Source: an uncultured Candidatus Saccharibacteria bacterium
GTDB lineage: Bacteria; Patescibacteriota; Minisyncoccia; Sungbacterales; HO2-52-23
Length of the DNA stretch: 64,000 nt
Direction of reading: 5' to 3'
Assembly: GCA_964412615.1 (NCBI GenBank)
Contig: CAYPPK010000001.1
Span: forward strand, 54,983-118,982
Positions 2,858 to 63,234 of this stretch are shown piece after piece. The notes beneath the pieces were generated by a model. That model saw only the letters and a program-made list of their open reading frames with translations, was not told the origin of the DNA and did no database searches. How positions within the stretch are numbered: position 1 is the stretch's first letter; each line of letters starts with the position of its first letter. A program made the translations under genes and the position numbers.

Positions 2858-4239
2858 CTATTTTTGTGACAATTGAAGATTCAGTTACGGCAAGAAACAT
2901 ATTTTCCACCCCGTTTTGGGAGTCATTTTTGGCAAATAATCGGAGGGAAAGAATAGTGGTGCTGACTCTTCCCGGAAATAAAGAGCGCTATACGAGGATG
3001 TTTGGAACTTCGGCCGGAAACGTTACCGTTGAGGCGCTAAATCCGCAATTCCATTCCCGCTTCGCGGGTTTGGTAACGTCGCTGCAGCGATCGGCGATTA
3101 ACTCCCACACCAATCTTTGGTCAAAAATGCGCGCCTATGAACGCGGCCAGACCGGCTTTATGGTTACGTTTCTCAAGCGGTTTCTTACCTGGATTTTAGG
3201 CGGTTTTCCCCCTTATAAACGTTTTTTGCGATATCTCTTGCTGAAGGCAAAACCCAGCCGAAGAGTAAGGGAAATTTTTAATAAATATAAGCCGGATTTG
3301 CTGCTTGCAAGTTATATCGCCAACTTTAATTTTGACGTTCCTTTGGTCTGCGAGGCCCAAAGAAGGGGAATAAAAACTGTGGGGATTACACGAGGATGGG
3401 ACACCTTGTCCAGTCACGGACTTCTTCGCGTGGTTCCGGACAAGCTAGTAGTGCAAAGCGGATTTCTTAAAAAAATGGCCCTGACTTATCAAGGGGTAAA
3501 AGAGGAAAAAATTACGGTTATGGGCAGCCCCTTTTATGATGTGATGTTCAAGAATCTTCCTTCTCTCTTGGAGGCGCGGGAAAAATTTTTCGCCAAACTC
3601 GGCCTTGATCCCCAAAAAAAGTTTATCCTTTACGGGGCCATGGGAGATTTTCTTTTTCCCTGCGAGGGATGGATTGCCGATGTCCTGGAAGAGTTGATTA
3701 CAAAAGGAGCGATTGCCTATCCGGCTCAAGCGATTTTCCGCCCCCATCCCAAATTTGAAAGCCCGGTGGAACGCCTGGGCAATTTCAAGCATATCCGGCC
3801 GGATCGGGACCTGAAACACTTTGAGAACAACCACGAACGCACGGATACGGAACTTGCGGATACGGGCCATCTGCTGAACCTTATTTACCACAGCGATGTG
3901 GTTGTTACCGGAGCATCCACCATTGCGCTGGACGCCGCGGTGTTCGGGAAGCCGGTGATTTGCGTAGGATTTGACCCCGGCGGATGCCGGCCGAAATACT
4001 GGCACTCGGTTAGGAGATTTTACGACCATTACACGCATTTTGAAGCGTTTATGGAAACCGGCGCGGCCCGCCTGGCCCGCACGCCGGAGGAACTTGCCAA
4101 GCACATCAACGCGTATTTGCCTAATCCCGCGCTGGACGAGGAAAAAAGAAAAGAGGCCGTCCGCCTTTTTGCCGAGCCGCTTGACGGAAAGGCAAGCGAG
4201 CGTCTGGAAAAAATTCTTTCTGAGGAAATTAGGGCATAA
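2854..4239 (+). CDS. putative TagF/capsule-biosynthesis-like glycosyl- or glycerophospho-transferase (paralog of 7827..9206)
   Basis: 461 aa; clear paralogy with ORF 7827..9206 (GI.TVG.T.GWD..SS..LRV.PD); C-terminal GT-B-like region; 4-bp overlap with upstream gene. Confidence 0.45.
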   Translation: MTIFVTIEDSVTARNIFSTPFWESFLANNRRERIVVLTLPGNKERYTRMFGTSAGNVTVEALNPQFHSRFAGLVTSLQRSAINSHTNLWSKMRAYERGQTGFMVTFLKRFLTWILGGFPPYKRFLRYLLLKAKPSRRVREIFNKYKPDLLLASYIANFNFDVPLVCEAQRRGIKTVGITRGWDTLSSHGLLRVVPDKLVVQSGFLKKMALTYQGVKEEKITVMGSPFYDVMFKNLPSLLEAREKFFAKLGLDPQKKFILYGAMGDFLFPCEGWIADVLEELITKGAIAYPAQAIFRPHPKFESPVERLGNFKHIRPDRDLKHFENNHERTDTELADTGHLLNLIYHSDVVVTGASTIALDAAVFGKPVICVGFDPGGCRPKYWHSVRRFYDHYTHFEAFMETGAARLARTPEELAKHINAYLPNPALDEEKRKEAVRLFAEPLDGKASERLEKILSEEIRA

Positions 4240-7830: not shown

Positions 7831-9206
7831 CGCCTACGGAAATGAAAACAATATTTATTACCGTTTCCTCCGGTGCGGAAATTAAGAATTTCATGCTGGG
7901 TGATTTTTATAAATTGGCTAAAAATAGCGATGATATTCGCTTGGTGGTCTTCGTACCTGCGGAAAAAATTATCCGGTATAAGCAGGAATTTAACCACGAG
8001 CGCTGTATAGTGGAGCCGATGCCTGACTTTGGCGGCGGCAAAGCCAAGCAGTTATTTCAGGTCCTGACTCTAGCCAGTATTCCCACGGCAACCATCCGCT
8101 CCCGCCAAAGGTTTACTTATCTGAGCGGAGGATCGCTTTTGGCGTTTTGGGGCAAGCGGTTGATCTGGCTCCTGGGCCATCGGAAAATTTTTCGCGCCCT
8201 CCTGCGTGCCGTTGATTATCATCTCTTTCGCGAAGACCGCGTCTGGGAGGCGTACTTTATCCGCTATAATCCCGATGTTGTATTTGCTCCGGCCTTAAAG
8301 TTTGAGGAATCAATGGCGCTTATGAAGGCCGCTAAGCGTCAGGGAATTCCATGCGTGGGTATGACCGGAGGATGGGATAACATATCCTCCAAACTTTTTT
8401 TGCGCGTGCACCCGGACCTTATGCTCGTGCAAAATCCGACTATGCTCCGTGAACTTATGGAGCTCAACGATTATCCGGCAAAAAAAATACGGGTGGTTGG
8501 CTTTCCGCAATGGGACCACTATAAAGACCCGGCCTGGGAAATGAGCAAAGCCGAGGTAGCAAAAATCATCGGTGTGAATCCGGAAAAGCGCTGGATTACC
8601 TATTTTACCGGCGGGCTACTAATCGGGGGCTTAACCATGGAGGACTTGAGAGACCAAGCCGATATCTTAACCAAAGCTATAGAGTCGGGTGAGATCCAAA
8701 ACGCTCAGCTCCTGGTCCGCATACATCCTCTGGACAAAGTAACCTTGGAGGCAAAGAATCCCAGCAGCAAAGTTCTTGATTTTGGCAAAGGATTTAATTT
8801 CAGCACGGACGACATAAAGCTGCTGGCCAATCTGGTTCGCTTGAGCGAGGTGACTATCAATTTCGGCTCCACCATGACTTTGGAGGCGGCAATTTTTGAT
8901 CGGCCGGTTATTTCCATCGGCTTTAATGGATATAACGATAAAAAAATTCCTGTTTTTAAACGGCTTTCCTACGCCCTTGATAACGCTACGCATTATTTTC
9001 CCATTGAAAAAAGCGGGGGAGTGTGGCGCGCCAAAAATCCCCGGGATTTCGTGGAAGCGGTAAAAAATTATCTCCAAAATCCCCAATTGCATCACGAAGG
9101 GCGGTTAGCCATTATGCGAGACTTGGTAGGGCCGCAGGACGGCAATTCCAGCCGGAGGGTTCTGGAAGAAATTGTTGGCTTGATAAAACCAATGACCCCG
9201 AAATGA
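7827..9206 (+). CDS. putative TagF/capsule-biosynthesis-like transferase (paralog of 2854..4239)
   Basis: 459 aa; paralogous to 2854..4239 over the full length; ATGA overlap with upstream ABC gene. Confidence 0.45.
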   Translation: MTPTEMKTIFITVSSGAEIKNFMLGDFYKLAKNSDDIRLVVFVPAEKIIRYKQEFNHERCIVEPMPDFGGGKAKQLFQVLTLASIPTATIRSRQRFTYLSGGSLLAFWGKRLIWLLGHRKIFRALLRAVDYHLFREDRVWEAYFIRYNPDVVFAPALKFEESMALMKAAKRQGIPCVGMTGGWDNISSKLFLRVHPDLMLVQNPTMLRELMELNDYPAKKIRVVGFPQWDHYKDPAWEMSKAEVAKIIGVNPEKRWITYFTGGLLIGGLTMEDLRDQADILTKAIESGEIQNAQLLVRIHPLDKVTLEAKNPSSKVLDFGKGFNFSTDDIKLLANLVRLSEVTINFGSTMTLEAAIFDRPVISIGFNGYNDKKIPVFKRLSYALDNATHYFPIEKSGGVWRAKNPRDFVEAVKNYLQNPQLHHEGRLAIMRDLVGPQDGNSSRRVLEEIVGLIKPMTPK

Positions 9207-13921: not shown

Positions 13922-15255
13922 CTCGCCAGAACAAAAATAAAGGCGTTTATCGGATAACGATGCCGGCCCTGGTCCGAAAAGCCGGCCGCCAGCGATCCTC
14001 CGGCATAAATCAAAATTATGGCGGCCAGAACAAGGCTGACGAAACGCTCGCGGCCTACATTCCTTAAAGCAAAAATGGCGCCGGCAATCCAGAGTAAGGT
14101 AAGCGCTATCCAGAAAGCGCGCCCGAGGACAGGGATGACGGCAAGCAGCCCCATCGTACTCCAGACGCGGCTGGCAAGCTCCAACGGGCCTTCCCGCAGA
14201 AGCAGCACCGAAGGAGAAAAATCAATCGGGAAATGAGGGATAACTTTAAAGTAGCGAAGATAGGTCGTATAGAGGTCCTGGGTGAAAAAGGAGTTGGCGG
14301 TAATTGCCAGAGTCGCAGCGGTCGCGCGAGGATGCTCAAGCATAATCCGAAAACCTTCTTTGGCCAGCACTGGCCCCAGCGCCGGATTTTCACTGATATC
14401 TTTGGGATCTACGCCGAGACGCTGGGCGAGTGAAAGTTTTAGCTCTTCTTCCACAAGGTGATAGGGGCGCCCCGTGCGATAGGTTTCAACCGAAACCGCT
14501 AGGTCGGTATAAATATTGCGCGCCCCGGTGGTAGTTCCGGAAAGTGAACCGAACTCGGCGTAATTTCTTGTCAGCCACGGAGACATTACGGCGATAAAAA
14601 TCAGCGGAAAAATCAAAACGGTCTGCCAGGAAAGCTTTTTAAATAATGCAGCCAGGAGAAGAAATAACATGGCAACCGGGAAAAGATAATATGGTTCCGG
14701 ACGAGTAAGAGCCGCCAGAGCCAAGACAAGACCGGCAAGGAGAGCGTATACTCTTGAATTATTTTGGACAAATCGGATGAAAAAAAGCGCGGCTAAAGTA
14801 AGAAAAAATACGGCGATGGCGTCAGTCAGCACCGTAAAACTCCAAAGCATGCCTAAGGGCTCAAAAGCGGTAAGGCCCGCGGCTATAAGCGGAACTTTTT
14901 CTCTCTCAGTCAGTTCTAATCCGATTTTCCATACTAAGATCGGCATGAGCGCGGAAAGGATAATTTGAAAAAATATCAAAGGGACTACCGAGTTGCTTAA
15001 GAAAAGAGACGCTGAAACAAGCAAAGAGTAAAGTGGAGGAAAAAAAGCGCTCGCCCGGAAAGGTTCAGAAATATCACGGGAGAAGCCGCGCCCCTCAAGT
15101 AAATTTTGCGCGGTTTGGTAGAATCCTTGGGAATCGGGAAGAAAAAAACCCTGTTCTCCGAAATTGAAAAAAACAAGTCCAGCTAAGGCCAGTCGTATCA
15201 AAAAAGCGCCTATAATTAGGAATAAGAGAAGACGCTGATTCTTGAGCATAATCAT
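13861..15255 (-). CDS. GT-C-fold membrane glycosyltransferase (ArnT/PMT-like, polyprenol-phosphate-sugar dependent)
   Basis: 464 aa, >10 predicted TM helices, layout typical of GT39/GT83-like GT-C enzymes. Confidence 0.55.
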   Translation of the reverse strand: MIMLKNQRLLLFLIIGAFLIRLALAGLVFFNFGEQGFFLPDSQGFYQTAQNLLEGRGFSRDISEPFRASAFFPPLYSLLVSASLFLSNSVVPLIFFQIILSALMPILVWKIGLELTEREKVPLIAAGLTAFEPLGMLWSFTVLTDAIAVFFLTLAALFFIRFVQNNSRVYALLAGLVLALAALTRPEPYYLFPVAMLFLLLAALFKKLSWQTVLIFPLIFIAVMSPWLTRNYAEFGSLSGTTTGARNIYTDLAVSVETYRTGRPYHLVEEELKLSLAQRLGVDPKDISENPALGPVLAKEGFRIMLEHPRATAATLAITANSFFTQDLYTTYLRYFKVIPHFPIDFSPSVLLLREGPLELASRVWSTMGLLAVIPVLGRAFWIALTLLWIAGAIFALRNVGRERFVSLVLAAIILIYAGGSLAAGFSDQGRHRYPINAFIFVLASYAILEFWEWRIFRRSRRIR

Positions 15256-15314
15256 AAAATACTCCAGAAACCACGCTCTTGTCCAGATAGTTGTATAGTT
15301 GTAAATTTGTCAAA

Positions 15315-15447
15315 ATGAATCCCACACATAACTTGCACAATTTATGTAAACAAAGGTCTATCGGCCATAAATATCACTTGCCTGACAGCTTTGTATACTC
15401 CACAGGAGGATACAGAATTTCTCAGTGCAGGTTATGTGTGGGATGAA
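15315..15447. repeat. palindromic intergenic element family A, copy 1 (133 bp)
   Basis: ATGAA-TCCCACACATAAC ... GTTATGTGTGGGA-TGAA; termini identical to copies at 43543 and 59556; inverted repeat extends to about 19 bp with one mismatch. Confidence 0.8.
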
Positions 15448-16549
15448 GATTCCGCAACTTAATTTAACGCGGTACATGAATTCCGTAAAGAAAGATTGGC
15501 TCTCCCAAATAGAAGAGATTATTTCGTCAGGGAAAATAATCAACGGGCCCCATAAGCAGGGATTTGAAGAAGAATTTGCAAAATTTCTAGGTGTAAAGCA
15601 TGTTCTGGGAGTTGCTTGCGGCACGGATGCTATTGAATTATCACTCCGAGCATTAGGCGTAGGCCCTGGAGACGAAGTCATCACTCATGCCAACGCCTTT
15701 ATTGCCGCCATAGAGCCAGTGGTGGCTTTGGGCGCCAGACCGGTTTTGGTAGACATTTCTGCCGTTGACTACGGGCCTGACCCGGAGGCAATCAAAAAAG
15801 CGATAACTCCCCGCACCAAAGCAATTATTGTTGTACATCTCCTGGGTTTGCCGGTGGACTTTGATGCAATTAACACTGTTGCTCGCCAAGCCAATATTCC
15901 TGTCCTGGAAGATGCCTCGCACGCCCAAGGAGCCGTATATAAAGGAAGAAGAACGGGTGCCTTGGGAGAAATAAATGCCATCAGTTTGGGTCCGGTTAAA
16001 AATCTTTCTACTGTCGGCGATGCCGGTTGTGTCGCAACTGACAGCGATGAACTTTTTGAAAAATTGCGCTATCTTCCGGTTCACGGACAGGTTAAGAAAT
16101 ATAAGCACGCGCTTTACGGCAAAAACAGCCGATTGGACGAAGTGCACGCGTCTTATCTTCGCCTCGGCTTGAAGACCCTGGATGAAAGAAATCAGCGCCG
16201 GAGAGAAATTTATGCCAAGTATAAAAGTGATCTTGTTGATTTGCCATTATCTTTCATACCGGAATTTCCAGACCGAACAGCAGTTTTCCACCAGGCGGTT
16301 ATACATACAGACCAACGCGATCAACTGCGGGAATATCTAAAGGAGCAAGGAGTGGAAACGGGAATGTACTATCCTGATGCCCTGCATGAACAGGAGGCGT
16401 GGAGTAACGCCGGCTTTCCCGGGGGAGGGAATTTCCCCCGAGTTGAAAAGTATGTAAAAACCAACTTATCGTTGCCCATATTTGCCGAGCTTACCGATCA
16501 AGAAGTGGAACACGTGATAAGTTCTGTCCGCTCGTTTTTTGGAAAATAG
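15443..16549 (+). CDS. DegT/DnrJ/EryC1/StrS-family PLP-dependent sugar aminotransferase
   Basis: Start at ATG 15443 (inside right end of repeat); PLP-lysine region and family-typical motifs; ORF track used GTG 15425. Confidence 0.8.
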   Translation: MKIPQLNLTRYMNSVKKDWLSQIEEIISSGKIINGPHKQGFEEEFAKFLGVKHVLGVACGTDAIELSLRALGVGPGDEVITHANAFIAAIEPVVALGARPVLVDISAVDYGPDPEAIKKAITPRTKAIIVVHLLGLPVDFDAINTVARQANIPVLEDASHAQGAVYKGRRTGALGEINAISLGPVKNLSTVGDAGCVATDSDELFEKLRYLPVHGQVKKYKHALYGKNSRLDEVHASYLRLGLKTLDERNQRRREIYAKYKSDLVDLPLSFIPEFPDRTAVFHQAVIHTDQRDQLREYLKEQGVETGMYYPDALHEQEAWSNAGFPGGGNFPRVEKYVKTNLSLPIFAELTDQEVEHVISSVRSFFGK

Positions 16550-17523: not shown

Positions 17524-18477
17524 ATGGAAAAATTACGGGTAGGCATCGTCGGATTGGGATACTGGGGCCCTAAATTAGTGGAATCGTTCAGGGGCATGGC
17601 TGGAGCGGAGGTAACTCAAGTTTGTGATCTCAATCCGCAGCTGCTTGGCGAAATTGCTCAAAAATATAATCTTGCCGGAACAACTTCTTTTGCTGAATTG
17701 CTTGCAGACCAGACGGAGGCCGTAGCCATTGCCACTCCGCCTTCCACTCATGCGGTCCTGGTCCGCCAGGCGCTGGAGGCGGGGAAACACGTATTTATTG
17801 AAAAGCCGCTTGCGACGGATTTTGACGAGGCACGATCACTTGCCGAACTTGCCAAGAGCAAAAATCTAGTTTTATTCGTAGACCATACCTTCTGTTACGA
17901 CGAAGCATTTGGCAGAGTGCGCGAACTGGTTCAAAACGGAGACCTGGGTAAAATACAAAAAGCGAGTTTTGAATGGTTGGGAGCGCGTCCCAAGCCCCGC
18001 GGTCCGGATGTTTTATGGGATTCCGGGCCGCATGCGGTTGCGGCCATGAATTTTGTCATGAATCAATCGGCCACCTTAATTTCAGCCGAGGTGCTTGCGC
18101 GCCTGGAGACCGGAGTTCCTTCGGCTTTGTCCGCGAAATTTACGTTTCCGGGCGGAAGCAAGGCAGATGTACTGCTTGCCTGGAAAGACCAGGAAATTGA
18201 CGGCAGTCCCGTACCCAAGGCCGCCCGCGTAGTTCTATCTGGAGATAAGGAACTTGTTTTTGAAGGAAGTTTTGGCGCCAGAGCTGTTTCGGTGCGCGAA
18301 AATGGAGTAGCTCATCCGCTGGCCGGATTGACTTTTGCCGATGAGCCGTTGAAGAGTGCTTTGGGGGCGTTTGTGGATGCTGTTAAATACGGCAAAAAAA
18401 TTCCTTCCGATGGCAAATTCGGGGCAGAAGTGGTAAAGATTTTAGAAATGACGGCTAAATCCGCGGGCTTGGTTTAG
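17524..18477 (+). CDS. Gfo/Idh/MocA family NAD(P)-dependent oxidoreductase
   Basis: LRVGIVGLGYWG Rossmann motif and EKP motif typical of the family; could be a WbpB-like UDP-sugar 3-dehydrogenase partner of the adjacent DegT aminotransferase. Confidence 0.75.
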   Translation: MEKLRVGIVGLGYWGPKLVESFRGMAGAEVTQVCDLNPQLLGEIAQKYNLAGTTSFAELLADQTEAVAIATPPSTHAVLVRQALEAGKHVFIEKPLATDFDEARSLAELAKSKNLVLFVDHTFCYDEAFGRVRELVQNGDLGKIQKASFEWLGARPKPRGPDVLWDSGPHAVAAMNFVMNQSATLISAEVLARLETGVPSALSAKFTFPGGSKADVLLAWKDQEIDGSPVPKAARVVLSGDKELVFEGSFGARAVSVRENGVAHPLAGLTFADEPLKSALGAFVDAVKYGKKIPSDGKFGAEVVKILEMTAKSAGLV

Positions 18478-18483
18478 ATTTAC

Positions 18484-20199
18484 ATGAGCAGAGGGTCGTA
18501 TTTAAAAATTATTTTTTCCAGCGCTGTTGCCGCGGTTATTTTTTATTTTCTGTTCAGCCGTTTTGCAGGAGCGGACCTGAAAACAAATCTTATTCAATTT
18601 AATTGGGAGTTAGGCATCTTGGCCTTAGCCATGTATGGACTATCGCTTGCGTTGAAAGCATTGCGTTTTAAATTCTTTCTTGGAAGAGCGATTGCTTTCC
18701 GGACAATTTACGGCATTACGGCCATCCACAGCTTCTGGAATAACCTGCTCCCGTTCCGCGCCGGAGAACTTGCTTATTTTTATTTGTTAAAAAAAGGAGG
18801 CACGGTTTCCGGCAGCGCCAATGTGGTATCGCTCCTGGTGGCGCGCCTTTTTGATGCCGTGGTGGTGTCGCTGCTGGCCGTTATCTCGGCATCTTTTCTT
18901 TTTACTGCCGCCGACCAGCTTTTAGGCGAGTTTTTAAGATATATACTTCTCGGCTCGGCCTTCGCGGTGCTTCTGGTTTTGGCCATAGCGTCTAGGTGGA
19001 GCGAAAAGTTTTCCCTATTTTTAGGTAATTTTACCGGAGGGAGGGAAAAGTCAGTGACGGTTGTGATTTTAAGCCGGATTCGCGAGGCGCTAGCGGCACT
19101 CTCTACTCTTAAAAGTTTTGCTAAGTTCGCTGTATTTTTGCTGCTTTCTCTGGCTATTTGGTTCGGTGACTTTTTGTTTGTCTGGACGGCTTTTAAAGCC
19201 GGCGGTTTAAATCTTACTCCTCTGCAAGGTTTATTTATCACTGCTTTTCCGGTAATTGCCATTATGATCCCCTTGCAAAGCCCTGCCGGCCTAGGGACTT
19301 TTGAGGGAACGCTGCTGGTCGGACTCCTCGCTTTGGGGATCAGCGGGGACGTTGGTCTGGGGGCAAGTGTTTTTTTACACGGGCAACTGCTTTTATTTTC
19401 CTTCTTATCGTTTTTGATCGCTACCTGGTTTCGCCGCCGCGATTCCGGGAATATGGAAACGCCGCGCACCAACTCGGACCTTTATGCTTCATTTTCCGAT
19501 CCAGAAAAAGATTTCCGCAACGCCAATCTTTCCGATCTTATTATCACTTTCGCTAGAGGAAATACGCTTCTGGATATTGGCTGCGGCTACGGACAATTGC
19601 TGAAGAAAGCCGCTAAATTGGGATTTGCGGCTTTGGGTGTTGAGCCCGATCCCGTAGCGCGGGAAATCGCCCGCCAGCATTATCCCGAGGTTGAAATAAT
19701 TCCAATTGAGGCAAAGAATTTCACGGCCGAACATTGCTTTGATACGGTGACCGTGCTGGACGTACTTGAGGATATAAAAGAAGACAAACAATTTTTGCAG
19801 AAGGCAGGTAATTTCGTGTGTCCCGGCGGGCGGCTTATAATTTCCGCTCCTGCTTTTCCAGCGCTCTACGGAGAGCGGGATCGCATGATGGGTTATTTCC
19901 GCCGTTATGACGCTCAGAACTTGGAAGCGATGCTTAAAAATCTAGGTTTTAATATCCGCCTGCGCAGATACTGGAATACGTTAAGTTTTGCGCCATATTT
20001 TATCCTTTATAAAGTGTTGAGGCGTTCTACGCACGCAGCAAAGCTTAGAGGGGGAAATACCAAAGGGTTTTCAGGCGGCCTTATCTCCCGCGTACTCTTT
20101 TGGTGGTTTAAAAACGTGGAGAATAAGTTCAATTTCGGTTTTGGCTTAACGATTATTTTGGTTGCCGAGAAAACGGGGGTTGCCAAGATGAAAAATTAA
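18484..20199 (+). CDS. fusion protein: N-terminal flippase-like/lysylphosphatidylglycerol-synthase-type TM domain + C-terminal class I SAM methyltransferase
   Basis: About 300 aa with 8 TM helices followed by LLDIGCGYGQL (motif I) ... VLDVLEDI methyltransferase domain. Confidence 0.5.
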   Translation: MSRGSYLKIIFSSAVAAVIFYFLFSRFAGADLKTNLIQFNWELGILALAMYGLSLALKALRFKFFLGRAIAFRTIYGITAIHSFWNNLLPFRAGELAYFYLLKKGGTVSGSANVVSLLVARLFDAVVVSLLAVISASFLFTAADQLLGEFLRYILLGSAFAVLLVLAIASRWSEKFSLFLGNFTGGREKSVTVVILSRIREALAALSTLKSFAKFAVFLLLSLAIWFGDFLFVWTAFKAGGLNLTPLQGLFITAFPVIAIMIPLQSPAGLGTFEGTLLVGLLALGISGDVGLGASVFLHGQLLLFSFLSFLIATWFRRRDSGNMETPRTNSDLYASFSDPEKDFRNANLSDLIITFARGNTLLDIGCGYGQLLKKAAKLGFAALGVEPDPVAREIARQHYPEVEIIPIEAKNFTAEHCFDTVTVLDVLEDIKEDKQFLQKAGNFVCPGGRLIISAPAFPALYGERDRMMGYFRRYDAQNLEAMLKNLGFNIRLRRYWNTLSFAPYFILYKVLRRSTHAAKLRGGNTKGFSGGLISRVLFWWFKNVENKFNFGFGLTIILVAEKTGVAKMKN

Positions 20200-27966: not shown

Positions 27967-28100
27967 TTGACTTTTTTCTCCCGATCTGCTACTAATAGGG
28001 GCAGTGTGAGTGTCTTTTAGGAGGTGCCCAGCTGCAAAGCGGGGTATTCCTAAAACTCCAATTTGTCCGGTAAAAACCCCGCAAGGGGTTTTTGCTTTTT
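27967..28100 (+). ncRNA. candidate small transcript: sigma70-like promoter (TTGACT-17-TACTAA) to intrinsic terminator (AAAACCCC-GCAA-GGGGTTTT-TGCTTTTT), about 100 nt
   Basis: Promoter-like hexamers with 17-bp spacer at 27967..27995, perfect 8-bp hairpin + T-run at 28072..28100, no ORF between; function unknown. Confidence 0.25.
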
Positions 28101-28162
28101 AAGGGCTTGGCCTAAAATTTCAAGTACTGAAGCACGACGAAATTTTAGCTGCCAAACCTTAA

Positions 28163-28313
28163 CCCCGCTCTAATTTTGCAATATAAGACGGCCATGAGAT
28201 ACTATGGGAAAAAGAATTTGATTGTTTATAGCGGCCCGCGTGCAGCGAATAGCTGCTTACCTTTATGGGAGAAGCGGGCCGTATAAAATATATCTCGCAA
28301 AATTAGAGCGGGG
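28163..28313. repeat. hairpin repeat family B, copy 1 (17-bp perfect inverted repeat CCCCGCTCTAATTTTGC, arms 113 bp apart)
   Basis: Left arm CAAACCTTAACCCCGCTCTAATTTTGC is near-identical to 62544..62568; right arm is its reverse complement. Confidence 0.6.
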
Positions 28314-28326
28314 TAGCACAAAATTT

Positions 28327-29451
28327 ATGAAATCAAAAGGTATCATTCTTTTATATGGCGCTACCGAAATTGGCTCATCACATTTTTCAGCCGATCTTTT
28401 GTGGCGGACTAAATTCAGGGCTCCTGATCCTTTTTTCTTGATGGAAGGTAAAGATAAAACCTATCTTTTTGCTTCTGCCTTGGAGCGAAACAGGGCGATG
28501 CGCGAAGCTGAAGTTGATGCCGTTTTACCGATTGCAAAGCTGAAGGACGTTGTTACCTTTCTTAAGCATTTGAAAATCAACAAAATTGTCGTTCCTTTTT
28601 CTTTCCCCCATGGTTTGGCAAAGTTTTTAGCACGTCATTTTCTGGTAACGATAAATAATCATCTTTTTTATCCGGGACGTTTTCAAAAAACTCCTTTTGA
28701 GATCAAGGAAATAAAAAAAGCCCAGGCCGCGGCCGAGGTGGCCTTTCTTAAAGCCCGGAATATTTTGCAGAAAAGCAAAATAAAAGAAAAAGGAATTTAC
28801 TTTGGCAAAAAACTAGTTACTTCAGAAATGCTGCGTGAAATCATAGATGAAGATCTTTTTGCCAAAGGATTTTTGGGAATAGGTACGATCGTAGCTTCTG
28901 GAATTCAGGCTGCTGATCCTCATGCTCTTGGCCGAGGGCCGGTAATTCCCCATACGGCAATTGTTTTTGATGTTTTTCCGGTCTCTCGTTCTTCACATTA
29001 TTTTGCCGATATGAGCCGTACTGTCTTTAAAGGAAGGCCAAACGATAGGCTTATAGAAATGTACGAAGCGGTGCGTGCCACTCAAGAGAAATCAATAACT
29101 ATGGTTAAAGCAGGGGCAGATGGAGCAAGGATTTATAATTGGGCAAAAAATAATTTTGCCAGGCTGGGATTCCCGACAGAATTTAAAAAAGAAAAACCAG
29201 AAGGGTTTTTCCATAGTTTGGGACACGGCGTGGGTTTGGATATTCACGAGCCGCCGAATCTGGGCAGTATTTCTTGCCGGCTGCAAAAAAGAAATGTGGT
29301 GACGGTTGAACCCGGTCTTTACTACCGGGAGAACCGCAAAAATATATCTGCGGGGGGTATAAGAATTGAAGATATGGTATTAGTGGAAAGAGACAGCTGT
29401 CAAAATCTAACAAAAATGCCCAAATCCATAGCTTGGGCCGTAATTCCATAG
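28327..29451 (+). CDS. M24-family metallopeptidase (Xaa-Pro aminopeptidase/creatinase-like)
   Basis: Start at ATG 28327 (MKSKG...); C-terminal metal-ligand motifs (HGVGLDIHE, VEPG). Confidence 0.7.
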   Translation: MKSKGIILLYGATEIGSSHFSADLLWRTKFRAPDPFFLMEGKDKTYLFASALERNRAMREAEVDAVLPIAKLKDVVTFLKHLKINKIVVPFSFPHGLAKFLARHFLVTINNHLFYPGRFQKTPFEIKEIKKAQAAAEVAFLKARNILQKSKIKEKGIYFGKKLVTSEMLREIIDEDLFAKGFLGIGTIVASGIQAADPHALGRGPVIPHTAIVFDVFPVSRSSHYFADMSRTVFKGRPNDRLIEMYEAVRATQEKSITMVKAGADGARIYNWAKNNFARLGFPTEFKKEKPEGFFHSLGHGVGLDIHEPPNLGSISCRLQKRNVVTVEPGLYYRENRKNISAGGIRIEDMVLVERDSCQNLTKMPKSIAWAVIP

Positions 29452-29606
29452 CCAATTTCAGCCAAGGTTACTTTAGAGGCACGAGAAGGGTTTTAACTCC
29501 AAAGCTTTGTCCTTATGTGAGTACCTGCTACTCGTGCCACTGAAGCAGCCGAAATCTATGTTTAAGATATTGTATCTGCCTGAATTTTGCAATAGAATTT
29601 CACTAC

Positions 29607-38626: not shown

Positions 38627-38818
38627 TTATCAAGAGTGCGGGCGCTCCGACACGAGGTTGGAGCGGAGGAACTGGCCTCTCAATCCGCCGACAACTTGCC
38701 ATCGATATTAATGGTAAAGTGCCAAATCCAGCCTTGTCCGCCGGAGCTTTAGCGAATGGCGGGCCGCAAGGAGAGATAAGTGTTGTCGCCTCTTCTTGCC
38801 GAAGGCGATTATTTTTTT
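38627..38818 (+). promoter_or_regulatory. SAM-I (S-box) riboswitch with intrinsic-terminator expression platform, 5' leader of metK
   Basis: UUAUCAAGAG...GGAGGAACUGGCC...GCCGACAAC...GGUAAAGUGCCAAAUCCAGCC...AAGGAGAGAUAAG matches SAM-I consensus (P1-P4, kink-turn); followed by GTCGCCT...AGGCGA hairpin + TATTTTTTT at 38783..38818. Confidence 0.85.
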
Positions 38819-43542: not shown

Positions 43543-43679
43543 ATGAATCCCACACATAACTTTCGCTGTGCTTTGCACCAGGAAAAGCCAGTGTGGGAAG
43601 GATAATAAATTTACCAAACCTTTCGTGATTTCTTGGAAAATTAAACCAGGTGGATTGCGAAAGTTATGTGTGGGATGAA
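43543..43679. repeat. palindromic intergenic element family A, copy 2 (137 bp)
   Basis: ATGAA-TCCCACACATAACTTTCGC ... GCGAAAGTTATGTGTGGGA-TGAA; terminal inverted repeat extends to 18+ bp in this copy. Confidence 0.8.
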
Positions 43680-56174: not shown

Positions 56175-57629
56175 ATGTCTATGCCGAAAGAAGGCAGGAT
56201 ACATCTAAATAAATACGCTCCGCCGCCTCCCGAGTTGCCGGTCTACCAGCAAATAGATCCGCGGGAGGTTTCTTTTATCGGCCGCACCAATTACGAGGCG
56301 CCTCTGGAATCCAAGAAATATATTTTTGGCATCAGGCGCAAAGACCGCCGGCGCCATGTTTATATCGTGGGCAAGTCCGGAGTGGGCAAATCAAAACTTT
56401 TGGAACTTATGGCACGCCAGGATATTGCTTACGGCCATGGGGTTTGTTTGATTGACCCGCACGGAGACGTGATAGAAGAAGTTTTAAAATTTATTCCGGA
56501 AGAGCGCGTTGGAGACGTGATTTTGATTGATCCGGCCGACGCCGATTGGCCTATTTCTTTTAACCCCTTGCAAAAAGTGCCGCCTGATTTAAAGCATCAA
56601 ATGGCGCAGGGTTTGATTGAAGTCATGGAAAAACAATTCGGAGCCAACTGGACCCCGCGCCTGGAGCATGTTTTTCGCTTTACAACCTTGGCTTTATTGG
56701 ATTATCCCGAGGCGACTTTGCGGGGTATGATCTCCATGCTAACTGACCGACCGTATCGCCAAAAAGTCATTGAATACATTACCGATGACATGGTAAAGCG
56801 CTTTTTTGCGGTAGAATTCGCCGATTGGTCGGAGAAGTTTGATACTGACGCCATCATTCCTTTGGTAAATAAACTCGGCCAATTTCTTTCCATGCCCATG
56901 CTGCGCAATATTTTTGCCCAGAAAGAAAATAAAATTGACTTGGAGGAGATAATGAACAATAAAAAAATCCTTCTGATTAACCTTTCCAAGGGCAAACTGG
57001 GAGAGGAAAATTCCAGTTTCTTCGGTTCCATGTTTATTACCAAGATCAAACAGGCCGGCATGGCGCGGGCCGGCATGCCGGAGGAAAAACGAACGGACTT
57101 TTATCTATATGTAGACGAGTTCCATAATTTAGTAACCGATTCTTTTACCAATCTTTTTTCTGAAGCGCGCAAGTACGGGCTTAACCTTACCGTCGCTCAC
57201 CAATATACCGCTCAGCTTTTACCTGAAGTGCTGGCTACTGTTTTGGGTAATGTGGCCAATATTATTATTTTCCGGGTTGGGGGCGATGACGCGGCCAAAC
57301 TGGAATCCGAAATGACTCCGGTTTTCAAGGCCAAAGACATGATTAACTTAGGCACGCAGGAATTTTATATCAAAGAAACAATTGACGGAGAGACCTATGA
57401 TCCTTTTTCTGCCGAAACTCTTAAGATTCTTCCGGCTCCGCATCCTTCTTACAAAAGCAAAATTATAGAGGCTTCCCATCAAAAATACGCCATGCACGTG
57501 GAGGAAGTTAAAAAAATGCTCAAAGAGGAAGAAGAGGCGGTGATTTTCAGGAAAAATGGCAATACTTCTTCTGCCACTTCCGCCGACAATGCGAATGGCT
57601 ACGAGTCTCCACCCGAACCACTGATTTAA
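56175..57629 (+). CDS. VirD4/TraG/TraD-like P-loop ATPase (DUF87/TraG-D_C type, 'type IV secretion DNA-binding domain' family)
   Basis: Walker A GKSGVGKS, Walker B FYLYVDEFHN, AHQY motif; paralog of 60508..62505. Confidence 0.6.
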   Translation: MSMPKEGRIHLNKYAPPPPELPVYQQIDPREVSFIGRTNYEAPLESKKYIFGIRRKDRRRHVYIVGKSGVGKSKLLELMARQDIAYGHGVCLIDPHGDVIEEVLKFIPEERVGDVILIDPADADWPISFNPLQKVPPDLKHQMAQGLIEVMEKQFGANWTPRLEHVFRFTTLALLDYPEATLRGMISMLTDRPYRQKVIEYITDDMVKRFFAVEFADWSEKFDTDAIIPLVNKLGQFLSMPMLRNIFAQKENKIDLEEIMNNKKILLINLSKGKLGEENSSFFGSMFITKIKQAGMARAGMPEEKRTDFYLYVDEFHNLVTDSFTNLFSEARKYGLNLTVAHQYTAQLLPEVLATVLGNVANIIIFRVGGDDAAKLESEMTPVFKAKDMINLGTQEFYIKETIDGETYDPFSAETLKILPAPHPSYKSKIIEASHQKYAMHVEEVKKMLKEEEEAVIFRKNGNTSSATSADNANGYESPPEPLI

Positions 57630-59559: not shown

Positions 59560-59664
59560 ATCCCACACATAACCCTGGGCAAGATATACAATCAGCTTTG
59601 CATAAAATACTTATAGCTACTTTGTTGTTGGGGAAAACCGGCACAAAGTTATGTGTGGGATGAA
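59556..59664. repeat. palindromic intergenic element family A, copy 3 (109 bp)
   Basis: ATGAA-TCCCACACATAAC ... GTTATGTGTGGGA-TGAA; left ATGAA contains the TGA stop of the upstream gene, right end supplies ATG 59660. Confidence 0.8.
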
Positions 59665-60410: not shown

Positions 60411-60507
60411 TTTTACAGTGGTAAAAGAGTTCATCCTTTCCATGCCTACCCTAGAAGCTAGGGTTTAAATGCTTGGCCAAAAATGTTATAATATAGCGAC
60501 CTGACCC

Positions 60508-62505
60508 ATGGCCAAAAACGAAAAAGATATTATTTATATAGGCAAATGCAATTTCCGCGGCAATGAGCGGGTTTTTGGCATTAAAACCAAAGATCGCCGC
60601 CAGCATATGTATGTAATCGGCAAGACCGGAGTGGGCAAGACCGCGCTTCTTAAAAATTTAGCGCTGCAAGATATCCGAGCGGGAAGAGGTTTGGCCATAA
60701 TTGATCCGCACGGTGAATTCGTGGAGGAAGTTCTCTCGCAAATTCCGCCAGAGCGAACCAACGATGTAATTTATTTCAATCCCGTTGATACGGAATTTCC
60801 CATCGGATTTAATGTTTTGGAAGTACCGGATCAAAAATACAAACACTTGGTAGTGTCTGACTTGTTGGGCATTTTTACTAAAATCTGGGCCAATGTCTGG
60901 TCGGCCCGCATGGAATACATTCTGCAAAATTGCATCATGGCCCTTTTGGATACTCCCGGCACCACGCTTTTGGGGATTCCGCGTCTTTTGGTAGACAAGG
61001 ACTATCGGCAAAAAATAATTGCCAACGTCAAAGATCCGGTAGTAAAATCCTTCTGGGTGCATGAATACGAGACCTGGCGGGATCAATTTAGAAACGAAGC
61101 CATAGTTCCAATTCAAAATAAGGTAAACCAGTTTTTAAATACCGCTTTTATCCGCAATATCGTAGGCCAGCCCAAATCCACGCTTAATATCCCAGAGATC
61201 ATGAATTCCCGGAAGATCCTTCTGGTTAATGTTTCCAAGGGAAGAATAGGAGAGGATAATTCCGCGCTCTTGGGCGCCATGATTATTACCAAAATACAAC
61301 TCGCGTCCATGGAACGCGTGAGAATTCTGGAAGACGAACGGGTGGATTTTTATTTATATGTGGATGAGTTCCAGAATTTTGCTACCGATTCTTTTGCCAG
61401 CATTTTATCCGAAGCAAGAAAATACCGACTAAACATTATTATCGCGCATCAATATGTAGGGCAGTTGGTAACTGATGTCTCCACTAAAGTCCGCGACGCG
61501 GTATTTGGTAACGTAGGAACTATGATTACATTTCGGGTGGGAGCTACGGATGCCGAATTTCTGGAGCCGGAATTTACTCCCGAGTTCATGGGACAGGATA
61601 TAATAAATCTTCCCAACCATCATGTTTATTTGAAATTAATGGTGGATGGAGTTACTTCTCGGCCGTTTTCTTCCGTTACGCTGCCCCCTTTGCAGTTTGA
61701 AACCGATCCGGAAGTGCGGGAGAAAATCATCAAGGTTTCGCGGCAGCGTTATGCTAAACCAAGAGTAGAAGTGGAAGATAAAATTTCACGCTGGAGTGGA
61801 CTTTCTGGAGAATTAGAGGAGAGGGGGAGCAGCGGAACCCCAGCTCTGCCGCCAGGCCAACTTATAGAAACTCCTTGCTGGAACTGCGGCAAAACCGCCA
61901 CCGTGCCGTTTAAGCCCGATGGCCGCCGGCCGGTTTATTGCATGTCCTGTCTTAAGCAGATAGAAGAGGGCAAACTTATTCCTATTCCCGAACGCATGCC
62001 TAAAGTTGGCCGGGAAAAATACAGCCAGTCTCTAGAAGGACTGGGAATTGAATTTGGAGCAGCAAGTAAGGAGACTCGGCCTTCTTATAACCAAAACCAA
62101 GATAGAAAGGAGCCAATGGCAGTTCCTGATAGAATTGGGAATCGTCCCGCTATGCCCAAAGGAAATAATTTTCAGCGCAATAAGCGACGGGAGGATGAAC
62201 GCGTGAAAACGCCCAGCAAAAAGGAAGAAATAAAAATGGGGATACGCTCGCAACCCGTGGTGCGGTCGGCTTCGGGAGTAAAGCCTATTTCACTTTCTTC
62301 TTTGGAGCCCAAAATAGAAGAAGAAAGTCCGACGAACGAAGAAAAAAAATCTCCAAATAAATTTCCCGGATTAAAAGAGCTTTTGCGCGAAGTACTCAAA
62401 ACTGATCAAAATCATAAAGAAGAAATAAAAACGACAGAAAATAAAAAAAGAGAAGCAAAAGAAAATAGCAAAATAGTAAAACCCGGAGATGTAATAAAAT
62501 TTTAA
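60508..62505 (+). CDS. VirD4/TraG/TraD-like P-loop ATPase with C-terminal zinc-ribbon and Lys/Glu-rich tail (paralog of 56175..57629)
   Basis: Walker A GKTGVGKT, Walker B FYLYVDEFQN, AHQY; C-terminal CWNCG...CMSC zinc ribbon and low-complexity K/E-rich tail. Confidence 0.6.
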   Translation: MAKNEKDIIYIGKCNFRGNERVFGIKTKDRRQHMYVIGKTGVGKTALLKNLALQDIRAGRGLAIIDPHGEFVEEVLSQIPPERTNDVIYFNPVDTEFPIGFNVLEVPDQKYKHLVVSDLLGIFTKIWANVWSARMEYILQNCIMALLDTPGTTLLGIPRLLVDKDYRQKIIANVKDPVVKSFWVHEYETWRDQFRNEAIVPIQNKVNQFLNTAFIRNIVGQPKSTLNIPEIMNSRKILLVNVSKGRIGEDNSALLGAMIITKIQLASMERVRILEDERVDFYLYVDEFQNFATDSFASILSEARKYRLNIIIAHQYVGQLVTDVSTKVRDAVFGNVGTMITFRVGATDAEFLEPEFTPEFMGQDIINLPNHHVYLKLMVDGVTSRPFSSVTLPPLQFETDPEVREKIIKVSRQRYAKPRVEVEDKISRWSGLSGELEERGSSGTPALPPGQLIETPCWNCGKTATVPFKPDGRRPVYCMSCLKQIEEGKLIPIPERMPKVGREKYSQSLEGLGIEFGAASKETRPSYNQNQDRKEPMAVPDRIGNRPAMPKGNNFQRNKRREDERVKTPSKKEEIKMGIRSQPVVRSASGVKPISLSSLEPKIEEESPTNEEKKSPNKFPGLKELLREVLKTDQNHKEEIKTTENKKREAKENSKIVKPGDVIKF

Positions 62506-62554
62506 GGGCTTTGTCCAAAAATCCGAGCCATCAGGCGACGGATTTTTGGTTACA

Positions 62555-62653
62555 AAACCTTAACCTCGCTCTAACTCAAAGAAATACTCAGATGTCCGAT
62601 CGGTAAGCCGAAGGCGTTGCCGCGAGATAACCCTATACCGCAAAAGACGGAGT
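62555..62653. repeat. hairpin repeat family B, copy 2 (degenerate)
   Basis: Left arm CAAAACCTTAACCTCGCTCTAACTC about 90% identical to 28153..28179; right arm GAGTTAGGGCGTGG is imperfect reverse complement; lies between convergent genes (TraG-like ATPase and efp) and may act as a bidirectional terminator. Confidence 0.5.
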
Positions 62654-62664
62654 TAGGGCGTGGA

Positions 62665-63234
62665 TTAGGCCTTTTTTACCCTCTCCACATACTCTCCTTT
62701 TTCCGTATTGATGCGAATTATATCCCCCGTATTTATAAATAAGGGCACTTGAACAGCGGCTCCGGTTTCCAGGGTCGCTGTTTTTGTTCCGGCAGAGGAA
62801 CGGTCGCCTTGAACCCCCGGAGGAGCTTCGGTAACTTCAAAATCCATCTTGATTGGCAAAATAATAGTAAGCAGCTCTTCATTAAAGAATACGGCAGTAA
62901 TTTCGGTATTTGGTTTTAGCCATTTTTTGTTCTCGCCAATAAATTCTTCCCTCACAGGAAAGCGCTCATTCGGCTTTTGCGGATCTATAAATGTATATTC
63001 ACCCCGATGTTGGAATAAAAACTTCAAAGGGCGTTTTTCCACATCAGCCTCCTTAAACATATCTGCCGGCTTGAAGTTGCGCGAAAGAACCTGTCCGGTT
63101 TTCAAATGCCGGATTTTGGTCTGCACCGAAGACCCGCCCCGGCCAATGTGCTGGTGGGCAACTTCAAGAACCTGATAGGGGACACCGTCAAGTTCAATTA
63201 GGGAACCTGGTTCTAAGTCGTTTATGGAAAGCAT
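62665..63234 (-). CDS. efp: elongation factor P
   Basis: 189 aa; KOW-like N-domain with conserved loop (KTGQVLSRNFK), OB domains II/III. Confidence 0.85.
   Translation of the reverse strand: MLSINDLEPGSLIELDGVPYQVLEVAHQHIGRGGSSVQTKIRHLKTGQVLSRNFKPADMFKEADVEKRPLKFLFQHRGEYTFIDPQKPNERFPVREEFIGENKKWLKPNTEITAVFFNEELLTIILPIKMDFEVTEAPPGVQGDRSSAGTKTATLETGAAVQVPLFINTGDIIRINTEKGEYVERVKKA

Follow-up and report, generated by a model that had tools for sequence, protein, structure and literature searches.

CPR bacteria (Patescibacteria) have tiny genomes that are regarded as poor in mobile DNA. In the rRNA genes of these bacteria, GIY-YIG-encoding insertions unlike either group I or group II introns have been described, together with many short (<200 bp), ORF-less and uncharacterised insertions, and the insertion sites are not conserved (PMC11270868). 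That survey covered rRNA genes only, and a hairpin or closing-stem architecture is not described in it (PMC11270868). In the literature, no earlier description of MITEs in CPR bacteria, or of GIY-YIG genes with hairpins, was found.

The 64-kb stretch of DNA analysed here (the window) carries two copies of a non-coding module of roughly 165-215 bases, termed family B, and its hairpin (H1) and closing stem (P1) are also present in four related Parcubacteria genomes or assemblies. The module shares with the CPR rRNA insertions the bacterial radiation, the association with PF01541 and the occurrence of an ORF-less class beside an ORF-bearing class, and one family B homologue is located in a 23S rRNA leader. 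Unlike the rRNA insertions (PMC11270868), with which they are compared by description, the window copies are located at protein-gene junctions. Several junctions within the 64 kb bear structured inserts, and one family of them is linked to the gene of a minimal GIY-YIG nuclease. With this analysis, the "uncharacterised" GIY-YIG insertions of CPR rRNA genes and the short ORF-less ones gain a concrete architecture and two covariance models, and related elements are placed at protein-gene junctions, beyond the rRNA genes.

Architecture of the family B module

A perfect 17-bp inverted repeat is formed by CCCCGCTCTAATTTTGC at 28163-28179 and GCAAAATTAGAGCGGGG at 28297-28313, as described in the sequence-only reading, with a spacer of 117 nt instead of the 113 bp given there. 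The arms lengthen to 24 nt with 92% complementarity (28162-28185 / 28291-28314). Even when up to 3 mismatches are tolerated, AACCTTAACCYCGCTCTAA has no matches in the window other than 28155-28173 and 62556-62574, and two matches of this sequence were found in 0 of 100 shuffles. This match and the right arm GAGTTAGGGCGTGG bear out the second, degenerate copy reported near 62.6 kb between convergent genes. A partial match at 60463-60490 was considered as a third copy and rejected as a promoter-like AT-rich stretch. The block common to the two copies begins at TTTTAAGGGCTT (28097 / 62500), approximately 65 nt further 5´ than the arms noticed at first reading. Each copy comprises two parts, the hairpin H1 followed by the closing stem P1, with zero spacer between them. 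Whole-unit fold prediction, one of the checks that had been proposed, gave structures far better than those of shuffled sequences (z = -7.2 for the 28-kb copy and z = -4.5 for the 62-kb copy).

H1 is 62-64 nt long and consists of a 5-7-bp base (6 bp in the window copies), an internal loop, a 5-bp helix, a 2-nt bulge and a 10-11-bp A/U helix, and the base, loop, helices and bulge are all present in both window copies. The internal loop (GC/A in the window copies) and the bulge on the 3´ side are fixed features. In the predicted fold of copy 1 (28099-28162, + strand), the hairpin reads UUAAGG/GC/UUGGC/CUAAAAUUUC...GAAAUUUUAG/CU/GCCAA/A/CCUUAA. In copy 2 (62502-62563, + strand), the folded hairpin shares its first 5´ bases with the TAA stop that closes the TraD-like gene. 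The covariance model R1 describes H1 plus the arm and was built from 3 seed sequences that include both window copies, which it scores at 93 bits (copy 1) and 98 bits (copy 2). Many stem positions differ between the window copies, and all differences are compensated. Over nine distinct sequences in a model-fitted alignment, pairing extends to 96.8% of the cells, with changes on both sides in 13 of 21 pairs; these values were matched in 0 of 500 shuffles, and slid controls reached at most 55% pairing. The MAFFT alignment of three sequences is 100% paired, with 10 compensated pairs. U-G accounts for a single cell out of 186, and one-sided variation is absent from all pairs. The 62-kb H1 is closer to the H1 of the L022 GIY-YIG cassette (84% identity) than to its 28-kb paralogue (70%), and its apical mini-hairpin GCC-AUCA-GGC is also found in relatives, for example in the 23S-leader unit of L015.

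P1 lies immediately 3´ of H1. It is a closing stem of 14-24 bp that begins ACCCC/ACCUC, is found in both window copies, and has arms that are not palindromes individually. In copy 1, the left arm ACCCCGCTCTAATTTTGCAATATA (28162-28185, + strand; inverted repeat and R2 match) abuts H1, and the right arm TATCTCGCAAAATTAGAGCGGGGT (28291-28314, + strand) ends 12 nt before the ATG of the M24 peptidase gene at 28327, in agreement with the earlier placement of this copy just 5´ of the peptidase start. Between the arms, approximately 105 nt are predicted to fold into a branched GC-rich sub-hairpin region (28186-28290, + strand). A reading frame is open from 28222 on into the peptidase gene. Copy 2 occupies the entire 159-nt spacer between the TraD/TrwB-like ATPase gene (60508-62505, + strand) and the convergent efp gene (62665-63234, - strand). 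Its left arm CCTCGCTCTAACTC (62564-62577, + strand; fold and alignment) pairs with the right arm GAGTTAGGGCGTGG (62650-62663, + strand; fold) with one U-U mismatch and one G-U pair, and the right arm stops 1 nt short of the efp stop codon on the minus strand. The 72-nt interior of this copy (62578-62649, + strand; alignment and R2) holds GGTAAGCCGAAGGCGTTGCCGCGAGA at 62602-62627.

The P1 of family B aligns with closing-stem elements of L015 (CP066690.1), a complete 923-kb Sungiibacteriota genome, with the arm consensus AYCCCNCNCYAAYUC / GRAUURGNGNGGGRU. In the alignment of the 62-kb copy with L015, P1 and two small hairpins of the interior contain 18 predicted pairs, of which 7 are compensated. 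The interior motif GUAAGCC..GGCGYUGCCGCGRA is common to the 62-kb copy and three L015 closing-stem elements, and thus to two genomes. A second model, R2, was built from these four sequences with the 28-kb copy left out. R2 matches the untrained 28-kb P1 at 28161-28318 (23 bits, E 1e-4), and scores 91 bits on the 62-kb copy, which is in its training set. Both strands of the family B units fold equally well, so strand asymmetry is uninformative as an RNA indicator for this family; for two of the L015 closing-stem elements, the plus-strand fold is better by about 9 kcal/mol.

The interiors of the two window copies do not align to each other. The copy-1 interior (28186-28290) has no detectable similarity to other copies or to the GIY-YIG gene, and its short ORF has no similarity in BLASTP. 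The suggestive start MRYYGKKNL... led to this interior being considered as a decayed GIY-YIG ORF; with BLASTP and tblastn empty, this candidate was rejected. The best tblastn match of the GIY-YIG ORF in the 64-kb window has E = 1.3, with nothing within the elements. No promoter or terminator was found inside the family B unit, and no U-tract terminator occurs in or after the element.

Homologues in relatives and the GIY-YIG cassette

Relatives were reached via the flanking proteins, and proteins encoded nearby assign the window to Parcubacteria, near Candidatus Sungbacteria. Exact-pattern scans with AACCTTAACCNCGCTCTAA gave three genome matches, one metagenome match and no viral match, all in coding or unrelated sequence, and a blastn search of the 28-kb unit against phages and plasmids gave nothing relevant. 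The further copies that the sequence-only reading had proposed to seek elsewhere were therefore not recovered by exact sequence; with R1, they were recovered in four other genomes or assemblies. Independent R1 matches score 62-68 bits in L015 and in seven of the loci L022-L029, and 51 bits in L030. In L015, the inverted repeat CCCCGCACTAATTCT / AGAATTAGTGCGCGG is preceded by a hairpin of the H1 architecture (unit z = -7.05). This H1 (14486-14562; R1 94 bits) is followed, in the leader of the 23S rRNA, by a P1 domain without an ORF, and the unit, which is the third ORF-less copy, lies directly 3´ of a terminator-like hairpin.

A fourth H1, at 8104-8181 of L015 (R1 62 bits), is located directly 5´ of a GIY-YIG ORF (8187-8444). 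The ORF is enclosed by ACCCTCTCACTCGAAAA and TTTTCGAGTGAGAGGGT, with the pairing partner at 8445-8461, and is followed by an inverted hairpin, H1´. The order of the cassette is accordingly H1, arm, 85-aa GIY-YIG ORF, arm and inverted H1´. The same layout is present in all eight P0253 loci (L022-L029), which encode an identical protein behind two different upstream genes; R1 scores H1 at 64-68 bits in seven of them and at 31 bits in L023, and H1´ at 36 bits. The cassette of L030 has an H1 of 51 bits, an H1´ of 26 bits and 22-bp perfect arms, and L016 carries a GIY-YIG cassette with the same arms and a diverged H1. H1´ is inverted and diverged, such that the cassette has complex inverted ends of roughly 90 nt. 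The 5´ end of H1 coincides with, or closely follows, the stop codon of the upstream gene or the T-run of a terminator, H1´ ends directly at the next ATG, and the cassettes are co-oriented with the host operon in all cases. Neither window copy encloses the 85-aa ORF within P1, and both are ORF-less variants. An inverted H1´ was not found beside either of them with R1 on the minus strand with filters off, where the segment 28299-28363 scored only 13.5 bits.

The encoded protein is a bare 85-aa domain of the UPF0213 type (PF01541; PDB relatives 1zg2 and 1ywl) and has no DNA-binding domain. Its identity is 70-82% across dozens of CPR contigs, versus 50-68% for the M24 peptidase among the nearest relatives; conservation of the GIY-YIG gene thus exceeds that of the single housekeeping enzyme used for comparison, and the gene stands behind two different upstream genes. 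Many database calls of this protein (P0243, P0247, P0251, P0255 and others) are 98-126 aa long. The called ORF of P0243 (L030) starts upstream, in the P1 arm and H1, and in L022 all frames upstream of the GIY-YIG ORF are closed; these observations suggest that the longer calls are annotation artefacts. Gene callers can be misled by such inserts and extend ORFs across them, and short-read assemblies may also be broken by them.

For each of the three ORF-less copies, one syntenic relative lacks the element. At the 28-kb site, L006 (peptidase 68% identical) has the same order of glycosyltransferase, sRNA-like unit with terminator, peptidase and murB, with just 35 nt from the terminator to the peptidase ATG and no family B element, and L007 and L008 have different hairpins upstream of the peptidase; the 28-kb copy is therefore not a conserved peptidase leader. 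L030 has the same convergent traD-efp junction as the 62-kb copy, with a 92-nt spacer that contains no H1/P1. L013 has the same 23S leader as L015, with 11 nt replacing the ORF-less unit. Across one syntenic neighbourhood (sigma factor, DUF8128, two TraD-like genes and efp), H1 units are found at different junctions in the window, L015 and L030. The flanks of the three ORF-less copies are CTTTT..AGCAC, AATTT..TTAGG and TTTTC..TTACC, with no direct repeat between them that would indicate a target-site duplication, and the relatives are too diverged for the exact empty-site junction to be defined. With regard to placement at gene ends or upstream of genes, about which the sequence-only reading had asked, the 62-kb copy is located between convergent genes, the 28-kb copy before the peptidase gene and the L015 copy in the 23S leader.

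Other structured elements of the window and its relatives

Several further structured elements were observed. A conserved sRNA-like unit is located between the glycosyltransferase and peptidase genes (window 27967-28098, + strand; L006 9843-9973; L007 1-88). It has a putative promoter (TTGACT, 17 nt, TACTAA), ends in an intrinsic terminator, and contains a 3´ half, TATTCCTAAAACTCCAATTTGTCCGGYAAAARCCCCGCAAGGGGTTTTTGCTTT, that is nearly identical in relatives with proteins only 64-68% identical. No Rfam match beyond the terminator was found for this unit. A conserved structured motif 5´ of murB, AGAGGCAC.AGA.GGGTTTAACTCCAAA..TTTGTCCTT.TGTGAGTGCCTGCT.C..GTGCCAC, looks like a riboswitch or leader and corresponds to no Rfam family; it is single in the window (29470-29540, + strand) and L006 (11131-11195), and a tandem duplicate in L007 (1480-1615) and L008 (1240-1385). 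The segment 38640-38779 (+ strand), upstream of the gene at 38780, is GC-rich and strongly structured (z = -3.5 for the 255-nt spacer) and has no match in Rfam. Searches of Rfam 15, including group I/II introns and self-cleaving ribozymes, gave nothing but weak chance-level matches in the window and the relatives, with gathering and relaxed thresholds, and a hammerhead-like resemblance noticed by eye was dropped on checking.

Family A comprises three closing-stem elements in the window (15319-15444, 43547-43676 and 59560-59661) with the form ATGA/ATCCCACACATAAC...GTTATGTGTGGGAT/GAA. Each copy is flanked by direct ATGA(A), so that the downstream start codon is contained in the right arm, and the interiors appear unrelated by eye. 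One of the elements lies between ABC ATPase and permease genes. R2 detected none of the family A window copies. In L015, the ortholog of the gene upstream of family A copy 3 is followed by two tandem elements with AATCCCAC...GGGGGATGA ends. L007 contains a 109-nt closing-stem element, ACCCCATTAGAAAG...CTTTCTAACGGGGT, inside murB after codon 3 (1720-1828); its flanks show a GTCA/TCAA direct repeat, and an internal in-frame ATG would give a 22-aa N-terminal extension. A related element of L008, CCCGTTAGAGAT...ATCTCTAACGGG, converts, with its last G, the start codon of the peptidase gene to GTG.

The 23S rRNA gene of L015 is flanked and interrupted by hairpins built from AGTTTAA-like heptads, and near its 5´ end a stem with 22-nt arms encloses 153 nt and looks like an intervening sequence (hairpins and stem at 14919-14993, 15441-15510, 17579-17644, 19219-19345 and 15155-15351). 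A 266-nt direct repeat of the window with 71% identity (56964-57229 and 61213-61478) is explained by two paralogous TraD/TrwB-like ATPase genes (56175-57629 and 60508-62505), a gene pair that is conserved in L015 and L030.

Origin of family B and comparison with known systems

Family B is probably, if by no wide measure, derived from a mobile, GIY-YIG-associated cassette that inserts at gene boundaries, and would be a non-autonomous form without an ORF. This reading builds on the demonstrated architecture, GIY-YIG-cassette homology, compensatory conservation, presence/absence and gene-boundary placement. The window copies, which keep H1 and P1 around short non-coding interiors, would be mobilised, or would once have been mobilised, in trans. 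The hairpin ends would act in cis, and the maintenance of pairing despite sequence drift would thereby be explained. Spread would be driven by the GIY-YIG protein, either through break-and-repair or through structure-specific nicking of extruded hairpins. On host transcripts, P1 would fold the insert away; its stems of 14-24 bp are predicted to be long enough for RNase III, of which the insert may be a substrate like rRNA intervening sequences. Against a mobile origin, the 64-kb window contains neither a GIY-YIG gene nor a recognisable remnant, the window copies have no H1´, and only two copies are present in the window, with sequences identical in other samples of the same organism, among which no segregating insertion was seen. 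The nuclease is a bare domain without a DNA-binding domain, and its action on the H1/P1 ends is one that we infer. The interior motif shared with L015 hints at an RNA-level function, which plain selfish DNA does not explain.

It is conceivable, albeit doubtful, that H1/P1 is the recognition partner of the 85-aa nuclease, which would be guided by the extruded DNA hairpin or by the RNA of the element, with the cassette inserting at operon junctions and being folded or cut out of transcripts, and with family B as its satellites. The near-absence of G-U pairs in H1 and the equal folding of both strands lean towards complementarity at the DNA level. An RNA-level role is possible in view of the invariably sense orientation and the conservation of the interior motif, and the plus-strand preference of the two L015 elements may also point to it. 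A nuclease directed by nucleic-acid structure would, if true, represent a new type of selfish cassette, and substrate finding by a bare GIY-YIG domain can be tested in this system.

A host-serving structured RNA module at operon junctions, in which P1 is cut (e.g. by RNase III) or protects mRNA ends and thereby uncouples or stabilises messages or releases a small RNA, is a possible but less probable explanation, and one that is partly compatible with the mobile derivative. Co-orientation with local transcription in eight of eight known contexts, placement exactly at stop/start or terminator boundaries, the interior motif in four elements of two genomes, the plus-strand folds of L015 and the strong compensatory conservation of pairing would all suit such a module. 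The unit is missing from orthologous junctions of close relatives, however, and hence dispensable there; no promoter, terminator or Rfam family was found for it; and the strand-indifferent folding, together with H1 helices nearly free of U-G and of one-sided variation, is unusual for an RNA helix and fits complementarity at the DNA level. We consider it improbable that the units are classical MITEs, or REP/BIME/REPIN repeats moved by a DDE or RAYT (Y1) transposase. They are short, non-coding, hairpin-forming, dispersed and variably present among relatives, the P1 arms resemble inverted repeats with covarying sides, and an IS200/RAYT-like Y1_Tnp gene occurs in the syntenic relative L030; yet this gene (2918-3598, - strand) is flanked by TGTTTGAAGTC.GACTTCAAACA palindromes that are unrelated in sequence to H1/P1, and the GIY-YIG nuclease gene is the only gene found repeatedly inside the ends described here. 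No terminal inverted repeat spans the H1+P1 unit, in which P1 is internal with H1 outside on one side, no target duplication is visible, and the copy interiors are unalignable, unlike those of MITE copies. A GTAG-type REP unit is equally absent, as are inverted pairs of a 20-40-nt palindrome that carries a conserved 5´ tetranucleotide. Of the hairpin-repeat family that had been proposed from the sequence, the dispersed, bounded and insertion-like character is thus retained, with three syntenic absences, and the affiliation with REP/BIME repeats, for which a GTAG unit is lacking and no RAYT link was seen among the ORFs annotated, or with classic MITEs is not.

The sequence-only reading had also offered a leader, attenuator or sRNA of the peptidase gene. 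A cis-regulatory leader (attenuator, riboswitch or thermometer) would benefit from the strong structure 12 nt upstream of the ATG and from the frame that opens at 28222, but it is very unlikely, since L006 retains the upstream sRNA and terminator with its 35-nt interval and no element, L007 and L008 have different hairpins in that position, the sister copies lie between convergent genes and in a 23S leader, and the stems lack a terminator-like U-tract on their 3´ side. An integron attC-like recombination site is scarcely credible. With 100-150 nt, an imperfectly palindromic sequence and a variable centre, the unit is reminiscent of attC, and the 62-kb copy (CTCTAAC...GTTAGGG) agrees at 6 of 7 positions with each core site (RYYYAAC ... 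GTTRRRY). Nevertheless, the 28-kb and L015 copies have AAT/ATT in place of the required AAC/GTT, so the core fails in two of three copies; the neighbours are housekeeping genes rather than cassettes, and no integrase is present among the ORFs examined.

The proposed mobile derivative of a GIY-YIG cassette can be compared with several known systems. Like free-standing homing-endonuclease cassettes, such as those of phage T4 (seg/mob), the GIY-YIG cassette places a small co-oriented nuclease gene between host genes, is variably present among relatives, and has a nuclease gene of higher conservation than the sequence around it. Unlike these, it has a bare 85-aa UPF0213-like domain, structured inverted ends of ~90 nt and ORF-less derivatives, and its homing is putative. 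Intervening sequences of 23S rRNA, which are processed by RNase III, share with family B the long closing stem, the variable interior, the horizontally scattered distribution and the harmlessness when transcribed; the window copies differ in that they are located outside rRNA, H1 has no counterpart there, and the cleavage of P1 is putative.

Among repeat families, Correia elements, Rickettsia palindromic elements and ERIC/RU sequences are likewise non-coding, hairpin-forming units of 100-200 nt that are intergenic or in-frame and are tolerated in transcripts; the related closing-stem element in murB of L007 is an in-frame case. In contrast to them, family B has no unit-spanning terminal inverted repeats, visible target duplication or interior similarity, its structure is kept by compensatory change, and it is linked to a GIY-YIG gene and not to a transposase. 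REP/BIME/REPIN-RAYT systems resemble family B in that their hairpins are extragenic and dispersed and their arms are better conserved than the spacer, whereas no RAYT association of family B was seen among the ORFs annotated, and H1 contains a fixed asymmetric bulge. A selfish cassette of the homing-endonuclease type, or a MITE-like one, is the best-supported placement for family B and its cassette, and the GIY-YIG-encoding and ORF-less insertions of CPR rRNA genes are the nearest published description (PMC11270868).
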